Assembly: GCF_041248615.1 (NCBI RefSeq) | Contig: NZ_CP158426.1 | Length of the DNA: 64,000 bases | Reading direction: 5' to 3' (one strand) | Source: Escherichia coli | GTDB taxonomy: Bacteria; Pseudomonadota; Gammaproteobacteria; Enterobacterales; Enterobacteriaceae | Program-made: the position numbers and the translations under genes | Shown: one piece after another, positions 9,147-9,160 of the stretch | Layout of the letters: each line of letters begins with the position of its first letter | How positions within the stretch are numbered: position 1 is the first letter of the stretch | The notes under the pieces: generated by a model | What the model saw: the letters and a program-made list of their open reading frames with translations, nothing else | Database searches by the model: none | Told to the model about the DNA's origin: nothing

Positions 9147-9160
9147 TTGATATATATCAA
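9147..9160 (+). promoter_or_regulatory. FNR-type binding site upstream of pdeF
   Basis: Exact consensus half-sites TTGAT-ATAT-ATCAA about 130 bp upstream of the pdeF start. Confidence 0.5.

Follow-up and report, generated by a model that had tools for sequence, protein, structure and literature searches.

A perfect FNR box at the reported class II position of the Escherichia coli pdeF (yfgF) promoter, and a conserved leader downstream of it

The spacer between the divergent Escherichia coli genes yfgG and pdeF holds a palindrome that reads as a binding site for FNR, and it raises three questions: whether the box is a working operator, which of the two genes it serves, and how far it accounts for the output of pdeF. 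We examined these questions in a 64-kb stretch of E. coli DNA (64,000 nucleotides, here called the window). The gene order around the box is yfgG (minus strand), pdeF (plus strand), ppx (minus strand), and for the segment 8700-9700 a counterpart of 95-100% identity was present in 5424 of 5426 complete E. coli genomes, with the locus annotated pdeF. RefSeq annotation of an identical strain extends the order to yfgI (minus), yfgH (minus), yfgG (minus), a 50-aa hypothetical ORF (plus), pdeF (plus), ppx (minus) and ppk (minus). The box and the two genes that flank it are placed as follows.

9147-9160, no strand assigned: FNR box TTGAT-ATAT-ATCAA, centre 9153.5; half-site conservation and an FNR ChIP-seq peak
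8745-8936, minus strand: yfgG, DUF2633, divergent neighbour of pdeF; RefSeq annotation and Pfam
9288-11531, plus strand: pdeF (yfgF), a MASE1-(degenerate GGDEF)-EAL c-di-GMP phosphodiesterase of 747 aa; RefSeq annotation and Pfam

Pfam scored MASE1 and EAL on the 747-aa PdeF protein, and nothing else; for the GGDEF domain we follow the literature (PMC3718329). The centre of the box lies 134.5 nt upstream of the pdeF ATG at 9288. Between 8835 and 9500, only two bases (9165 and 9440) separate the window from K-12 MG1655, and they leave the box, the -10 hexamer and the leader unaffected. The sole promoter-region difference is at 9165 (A in the window, T in K-12 MG1655), at about -30 between box and -10. 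About half of complete E. coli genomes carry one base difference from the window somewhere in 9135-9200, possibly this one.

A first-pass annotation had called the box an exact match to the FNR half-site consensus, and so it proved: TTGATATATATCAA at 9147-9160 forms a TTGAT-N4-ATCAA palindrome without a mismatch, with 10 of 10 half-site positions matching and its midpoint between 9153 and 9154, and the same 14-mer lies at a published FNR ChIP-seq peak (Myers, 2013). No other perfect match occurs in the 64-kb window. Dinucleotide shuffles of the window contained a mean of 0.07 perfect matches, with at least one in 7 of 100 shuffles, and one-mismatch FNR sites were not enriched in the window (4 observed against 2.9 expected). 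Taken by itself, then, the perfect match is moderately improbable, which is suggestive and not decisive. The box stands above chance because its half-sites are invariant across genera, its spacing to a conserved -10 hexamer is fixed, and its occupancy by FNR in vivo has been published. FNR sites are told apart from those of CRP, the sister family, by a T in place of a G at one half-site position. We considered a CRP site (TGTGA-N6-TCACA) for 9147-9160 and set it aside, as the half-sites are TTGAT and ATCAA, the spacer is 4 nt long, and the discriminating position holds T, not G.

To follow the box across the family, we compared 23 pdeF upstream regions from at least seven enterobacterial genera: Escherichia (including fergusonii and whittamii), Salmonella, Citrobacter, Enterobacter, Phytobacter, Kluyvera and metagenome contigs. 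A one-genome-per-species scan with PdeF gave full-length orthologues in Escherichia species, Enterobacter, Phytobacter and Kluyvera; a protein search and contig look-ups added Salmonella, E. fergusonii, two Citrobacter species and two metagenome contigs, and a scan with a leader motif added two further contigs. The best FNR-like site had zero or one mismatch in 23 of 23 regions, and the gap from the box to the hexamer TA(G/A)AAT was exactly 21 nt in every one of them. The distance from the box centre to the ATG varied from 124.5 to 143.5 nt, a range of 19 nt over the 23 regions. A fixed gap on one side and a varying distance on the other imply that the box is locked to the -10 hexamer and not to the coding sequence. 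Conservation in a 14-taxon alignment, given as the fraction of sequences identical to E. coli, was distributed as follows.

FNR half-sites: 0.94 and 0.96 identical
4-nt spacer within the box: 0.66 identical
Flanks of the FNR box: 0.43-0.58 identical
Stretch between box and -10: 0.43 identical
-10 hexamer: 0.87 identical
Early leader: 0.42 identical
Leader block 9225-9245: 0.90 identical
Leader block 9278-9290: 0.92 identical
pdeF codons 2-50: 0.62 identical

A module of box and -10 held at 21 nt across at least seven genera argues that the FNR input to pdeF is ancient and under selection. That box and -10 are conserved and keep one spacing over at least seven genera, as read from these aligned regions, is one of two things that the present analysis adds to the published account; the other is the conserved leader described below.

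Two insertions were seen close to this module in E. coli strains. In strain L73, an IS1 element lies between the FNR box and the -10, at the equivalent of 9163-9172, flanked by a 9-bp target duplication (GGTACTTTC); this insertion should uncouple pdeF from FNR in that strain. In strains ECA64 and CB6837 (hits H1-H4 of locus L080), IS1 lies about 40 bp upstream of the box, at the equivalent of about 9101-9110; there the box, -10 and leader are intact, and the insertion displaces the yfgG promoter and the AT-rich DNA upstream.

The elements that define the pdeF promoter, together with a second promoter-like sequence that overlaps it, are the following.

9182-9187, plus strand: TAGAAT, -10 hexamer of the class II pdeF promoter; 21 nt after the box in 23 of 23 regions and named as the -10 in PMC3718329
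9195, plus strand: inferred transcription start (+1), uncertain by 1-3 nt; lies 8 nt beyond the -10 and fits the published -41.5
9195-9287, plus strand: 5' untranslated leader of pdeF, about 93 nt, as bounded by the inferred start and the ATG annotated at 9288
9174-9203, plus strand: alternative sigma70-like promoter ATGACA-18-TATAGT; from a consensus scan, and given for yfgF by Shimada (2014)

TAGAAT matches the -10 consensus at 5 of 6 positions. In the interval 16-18 nt upstream of it, where a -35 hexamer would lie, the candidates AATTGG, ATTGGA and CAATTG share 0-2 of 6 positions with TTGACA; in having no -35 hexamer, the pdeF promoter has the form that would be expected of a class II promoter, which depends on an activator. 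Given a normal distance from -10 to +1, the 21-nt gap between box and TAGAAT places the centre of the box at -40.5 or -41.5. This agrees with the published promoter, for which Lacey (2013; PMC3718329), citing Lacey (2010), gives an FNR box at -41.5, a -10 of TAGAAT and a class II, FNR-dependent mode of activation. The class II position that had been assigned to the box is thus supported by the invariant 21-nt spacing in 23 regions and by the -41.5 in the paper that cites the original study, and the long leader proposed with it takes shape as a 5' UTR of 93 nt from the start inferred near 9195. We also considered whether PdeF might extend N-terminally into the leader, and rejected this on account of an in-frame TGA at 9279-9281 and of indels that are not multiples of three.

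Published data on FNR binding speak to the same site. An FNR peak at yfgF/yfgG was recorded by ChIP-seq (Myers, 2013, Tables S5 and S6; PMC3688515), and Table S6 of that study lists the identical 14-mer at the peak with a PatSer score of 16.08 and yfgF as the estimated target. We checked the mapping from K-12 to window coordinates on a second documented FNR site in the window, TTGACTTTAGTCAA in the upp/purM intergenic region, which fell at 17259-17272, exactly as predicted; that site was ChIP-bound without an fnr-dependent change in expression (Myers, 2013; PMC3688515). A further K-12 FNR site, that of guaB/xseA (TTGATCTCGCTCAC), is absent from the 64-kb window at up to one mismatch.

The expectation that pdeF is expressed anaerobically in an FNR-dependent way likewise has a published basis, since PMC3718329, quoting Lacey (2010), gives its expression as activated by FNR and maximal anaerobically, and a RegulonDB curation paper has yfgF activated by FNR in anaerobiosis; in the anaerobic, exponential, glucose-minimal cultures of Myers (2013, Table S9; PMC3688515), however, yfgF was FNR-bound and its expression did not change in an fnr-dependent manner, and its co-regulator is entered there as 'Unknown'. 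Perfect boxes are not always occupied either: part 1 of Table S6 holds 12 perfect-consensus boxes that were FNR-bound and at least 5 that were not, the latter mostly intragenic and covered by nucleoid proteins (Myers, 2013; PMC3688515), from which it follows that a perfect FNR box alone is not sufficient.

Together, these lines of evidence make it very probable that 9147-9160 is the FNR operator of a class II, FNR-activated sigma70 promoter of pdeF (yfgF). As a finding this is ordinary and correct, and it has already been published. Without oxygen, dimeric [4Fe-4S]-FNR would bind the palindrome about 41.5 bp upstream of the start, where it would take the place of the -35 element missing from the pdeF promoter and recruit RNA polymerase to the -10 TAGAAT at 9182-9187. 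Transcription would then start near 9195, an inferred +1, and yield an mRNA whose leader would run for about 93 nt before the pdeF ATG at 9288. The output of pdeF would presumably be limited further by H-NS/StpA acting on the AT-rich upstream DNA, and possibly also by the conserved leader.

A palindrome in a shared intergenic region could also serve the gene on its other side. The probable promoter of that gene, on the minus strand, is as follows.

8981-9009, minus strand: probable yfgG promoter TTGACC (9009-9004)-17 nt-CTTAAT (8986-8981); predicted by Shimada (2014), hexamers in invariant blocks

In the 14-taxon alignment each of the two hexamers lies within an invariant block, and the strong anaerobic sigma70 ChIP-seq peak at 2627279 (Myers, 2013, Table S1) maps to about position 8962 of the window. 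The 50-aa ORF of the RefSeq/PGAP annotation (8954-9106, plus strand; hypothetical protein WP_000017552.1) lies in AT-rich DNA over this promoter and is without a Pfam family; its weak cross-genus tblastn similarity coincides with the conserved promoter blocks, and it is probably not a real gene.

That the FNR box serves yfgG, alone or jointly with pdeF, draws some support from the divergent arrangement of the two genes, which was present in nearly all loci examined (no yfgG was called upstream in the metagenome contig L205), and from a quite constant distance of 205-211 nt between the yfgG start codon and the box. Moreover, yfgG was about 2.2-fold higher anaerobically in the wild type (Myers, 2013, Table S12, ratio 0.453; PMC3688515), yet it is not among the fnr-dependent operons of that study, in which the peak was assigned to yfgF. 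With the yfgG promoter and the sigma70 peak near 8960-9010, the box would stand at about -180 relative to the probable yfgG start, which is not where class I or class II sites usually lie, and a cross-genus -10 at the mirror-image distance on the yfgG side was not seen. We therefore regard a role in yfgG expression as unlikely, and the assignment of the box to pdeF stands. Still less credible is an FNR-independent pdeF promoter at ATGACA-18-TATAGT, with a start near 9210 and the box near -56.5 as a neutral or repressive element. This sequence comes closest in the region to a generic sigma70 promoter (10 of 12 positions) and is listed for yfgF within an RpoD-holoenzyme SELEX peak (Shimada, 2014), but the promoters in that table appear to be consensus-matched hexamers and not mapped starts, and our own promoter scan, with 1 site against 2.2 expected in shuffles, did no better than chance. 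Conservation of the sequence is confined to Escherichia, TATAGT falling in a gapped, variable stretch elsewhere, and -56.5 is a non-standard position for activation by FNR, judged by the general class I and class II spacings. We consider it very improbable that this is the functional promoter; ATGACA-18-TATAGT, with its TATAGT at 9198-9203, is probably minor or unused. Least of all do we credit a functionless chance palindrome: the region is AT-rich and a perfect match turned up somewhere in the window in 7 of 100 shuffles, but the half-sites are invariant while spacer and flanks vary, the -10 spacing is fixed and FNR occupies the site in vivo, so that this explanation is already contradicted.

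A more serious alternative accepts that FNR binds and questions what the binding does. FNR could be bound but permissive, with little effect under ordinary conditions, the level of pdeF depending mainly on silencing by H-NS/StpA and on post-transcriptional control through the leader. The DNA that such silencing would act on is the following.

9000-9200, no strand assigned: AT-rich tract around and upstream of the FNR box, 21-26% G+C; candidate H-NS/StpA target

Binding without an fnr-dependent change in anaerobic glucose medium (Myers, 2013; PMC3688515) is in keeping with this alternative, and loss of hns and stpA raised the FNR ChIP signal at yfgF from 0.35 to 1.68 (Tables S7 and S11 of the same study), with O2-dependent yfgF expression (+O2/-O2 = 0.23) seen in the hns stpA mutant only (Table S11; PMC3688515). 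The upstream DNA has the base composition given above, the yfgG/pdeF spacer is flagged 'HNS' by Shimada (2014), PdeF protein is reported in the literature as undetectable in aerobic LB, and the leader block is conserved. Against it, Lacey (2010), as far as it is quoted in later work, reported FNR-dependent anaerobic expression, and box, spacing and -10, strictly conserved in at least seven genera, imply selection on the FNR input; the alternative also refines the main explanation without replacing it. We treat it as possible, and on balance doubtful. The AT-rich tract at 9000-9200 is likely a target of H-NS/StpA, and FNR is the specific switch of pdeF, its output probably capped by nucleoid proteins. 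Expression of pdeF is said, in the abstract of the original promoter study, to be higher at 28 °C and in stationary phase, and a cap by nucleoid proteins fits this.

Class II FNR promoters such as narG, nirB, yfiD/grcA and ydhY carry the box over the -35 region at about -41.5, have a weak or absent -35 and recruit RNA polymerase anaerobically. Like pdeF, these promoters have perfect TTGAT-N4-ATCAA boxes, and they were FNR-bound in ChIP-seq (Myers, 2013, Table S6). Unlike them, pdeF did not change with fnr in anaerobic glucose medium, responds when H-NS/StpA are lost, is without a known co-regulator and has a conserved, structured leader. The closest comparison is the K-12 yfgF promoter itself (Lacey, Partridge & Green, 2010, Microbiology 156:2873), which is the same locus; box, -10 and leader are identical to those of the window, and as described in the paper that cites it the architecture is shared, with a box at -41.5 and a -10 of TAGAAT. 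The two differ by the promoter SNP at 9165 (about -30) and, well outside the promoter, by what adjoins yfgI, guaA in K-12 and a lysis cassette in the window.

This cassette (5344-7141, plus strand) comprises two holins, a GH19-type endolysin and DUF2514, and it occupies the place next to yfgI that guaA has in K-12 and in strain 7/2. The prophage-like region to which it belongs probably spans 1-7300, at the left end of the window and in place of guaBA, and it suggests that a prophage, or what remains of one, has inserted between guaA and yfgI in the window strain. In the metagenome contig L206, DUF2514 also adjoins yfgG.

Downstream of the promoter, the stretch 9225-9290 was near-invariant across at least seven genera and more conserved than the pdeF coding sequence, and the second half of the leader is, judged by the alignment, as conserved as the FNR box. 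Its predicted elements are listed here.

9201-9220, plus strand: 5'-proximal hairpin GUGAUGAA-UAAU-CAUCAU; predicted, -6.8 kcal/mol, z = -3.4
9227-9241, plus strand: leader hairpin 1, CAGGU-GGGAU-GCCUG, with loop GGA at 9233-9235; within the near-invariant block 9225-9245
9252-9271, plus strand: leader hairpin 2, CCUCC-UUCAGGAUGU-GGGGG, with loop GGA at 9261-9263; CCC/GGG core conserved, flanking pairs variable
9280-9290, plus strand: invariant block GAGCATCTATG, with a weak Shine-Dalgarno GAG and the start codon; 0.92 conserved

The z-score of the 5'-proximal hairpin refers to mononucleotide shuffles of a 30-nt segment. A hairpin of unrelated sequence was predicted at the same position in most of 18 taxa; it was weak or absent in the metagenome contigs meta_L108 and meta_P0103 and in both Phytobacter, and reached a z of only about -1 in several others. 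A predicted hairpin of variable sequence at this position lends weak support to transcription of the region.

Over the same 18 sequences, hairpin 1 was 98.9% paired and nearly invariant, which left no room for covariation, and hairpin 2 had 75% of cells paired and three pairs with changes on both sides. Taken together, the two hairpins had 85.8% of cells paired, compared with 20-48% in slid controls. Covariation did not rise above shuffles, the three two-sided pairs being equalled by 63 of 500, and RNAalifold found no compensatory pair in the leader. The fold of the whole E. coli leader was not unusually stable (z = -0.36), and an Rfam scan of 8900-9400 on both strands returned best E-values of 1.4-9.8, far below gathering scores and no different from noise. 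In E. coli the leader occurs at one place per genome, with no second copy; a metagenome scan with the leader motif CAGGTNGGATGCCTG gave at least 120 matches, and among the matches listed two were pdeF leaders, while the rest look like chance. Two other readings of the block were discarded. A long-range pairing of GGAUGCC in hairpin 1 with GAGCAUCU at the start codon, present in the MFE fold, was rejected as a conserved structure because substitutions in Salmonella, meta_P0100 and meta_P0103 break it and keep or improve the local hairpin. A mini-ORF, ATG-CCT-GTC-TGA, loses its stop in Enterobacter and MGYG110, where the frame runs on.

The two loop GGAs recall leaders bound by CsrA, whose SELEX consensus is RUACARGGAUGU. 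At least two GGA motifs were present in the second part of the leader in 18 of 18 taxa. In the window the GGAs at 9233-9235 and 9261-9263 are 28 nt apart, within the 10-63 nt spacing expected of CsrA sites, and each lies in a predicted loop; the AGGAUGU of the second matches 7 contiguous bases of the consensus. A third GGA, at 9270-9272, was found in 3 of 18 sequences (E. coli, Salmonella and meta_L108). Neither conserved GGA lies over the Shine-Dalgarno or start codon, where a site would be expected for repression by CsrA; they stand 25 and 53 nt upstream of the AUG. The cultures of the two CsrA surveys whose supplementary tables we consulted are said to have been aerobic; in such cultures pdeF would be silent, so that its absence from those tables is uninformative. 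The tables in question (Potts, 2017, for E. coli; Potts, 2019, for Salmonella) do not contain pdeF, yfgF or b2503, and in the literature and supplements searched we found no link of CsrA or an sRNA to pdeF, yfgF or STM2503. CsrA-controlled leaders have been described for dgcT/ycdT and dgcZ/ydeH (Jonas et al., 2008), which like pdeF are genes of c-di-GMP turnover; in comparison with these, the pdeF leader is a candidate CsrA target by its sequence and predicted hairpins, and its conserved GGAs do not overlap the Shine-Dalgarno.

Tentatively, and with more doubt than confidence, we propose that hairpin 1 (9227-9241), hairpin 2 (9252-9271) and the GAGCAUCUAUG block may form an undescribed post-transcriptional control element, most plausibly of the CsrA type, that would gate translation or stability of the transcript made under FNR. 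We did not find this element characterised in the literature searched; it is possibly new, and we put it forward as a hypothesis built on its conservation. Control at the leader, if true, would help explain why FNR occupancy is not accompanied by expression in some anaerobic conditions.

The FNR site ties oxygen sensing to c-di-GMP turnover by PdeF, and through it to motility, cell-surface remodelling and peroxide tolerance. The link between FNR and PdeF was published in 2010 and is in regulatory databases, and finding it again adds no new biology. If the leader element does act as a regulatory site, pdeF would integrate oxygen through FNR, nucleoid silencing through H-NS/StpA and a post-transcriptional signal.
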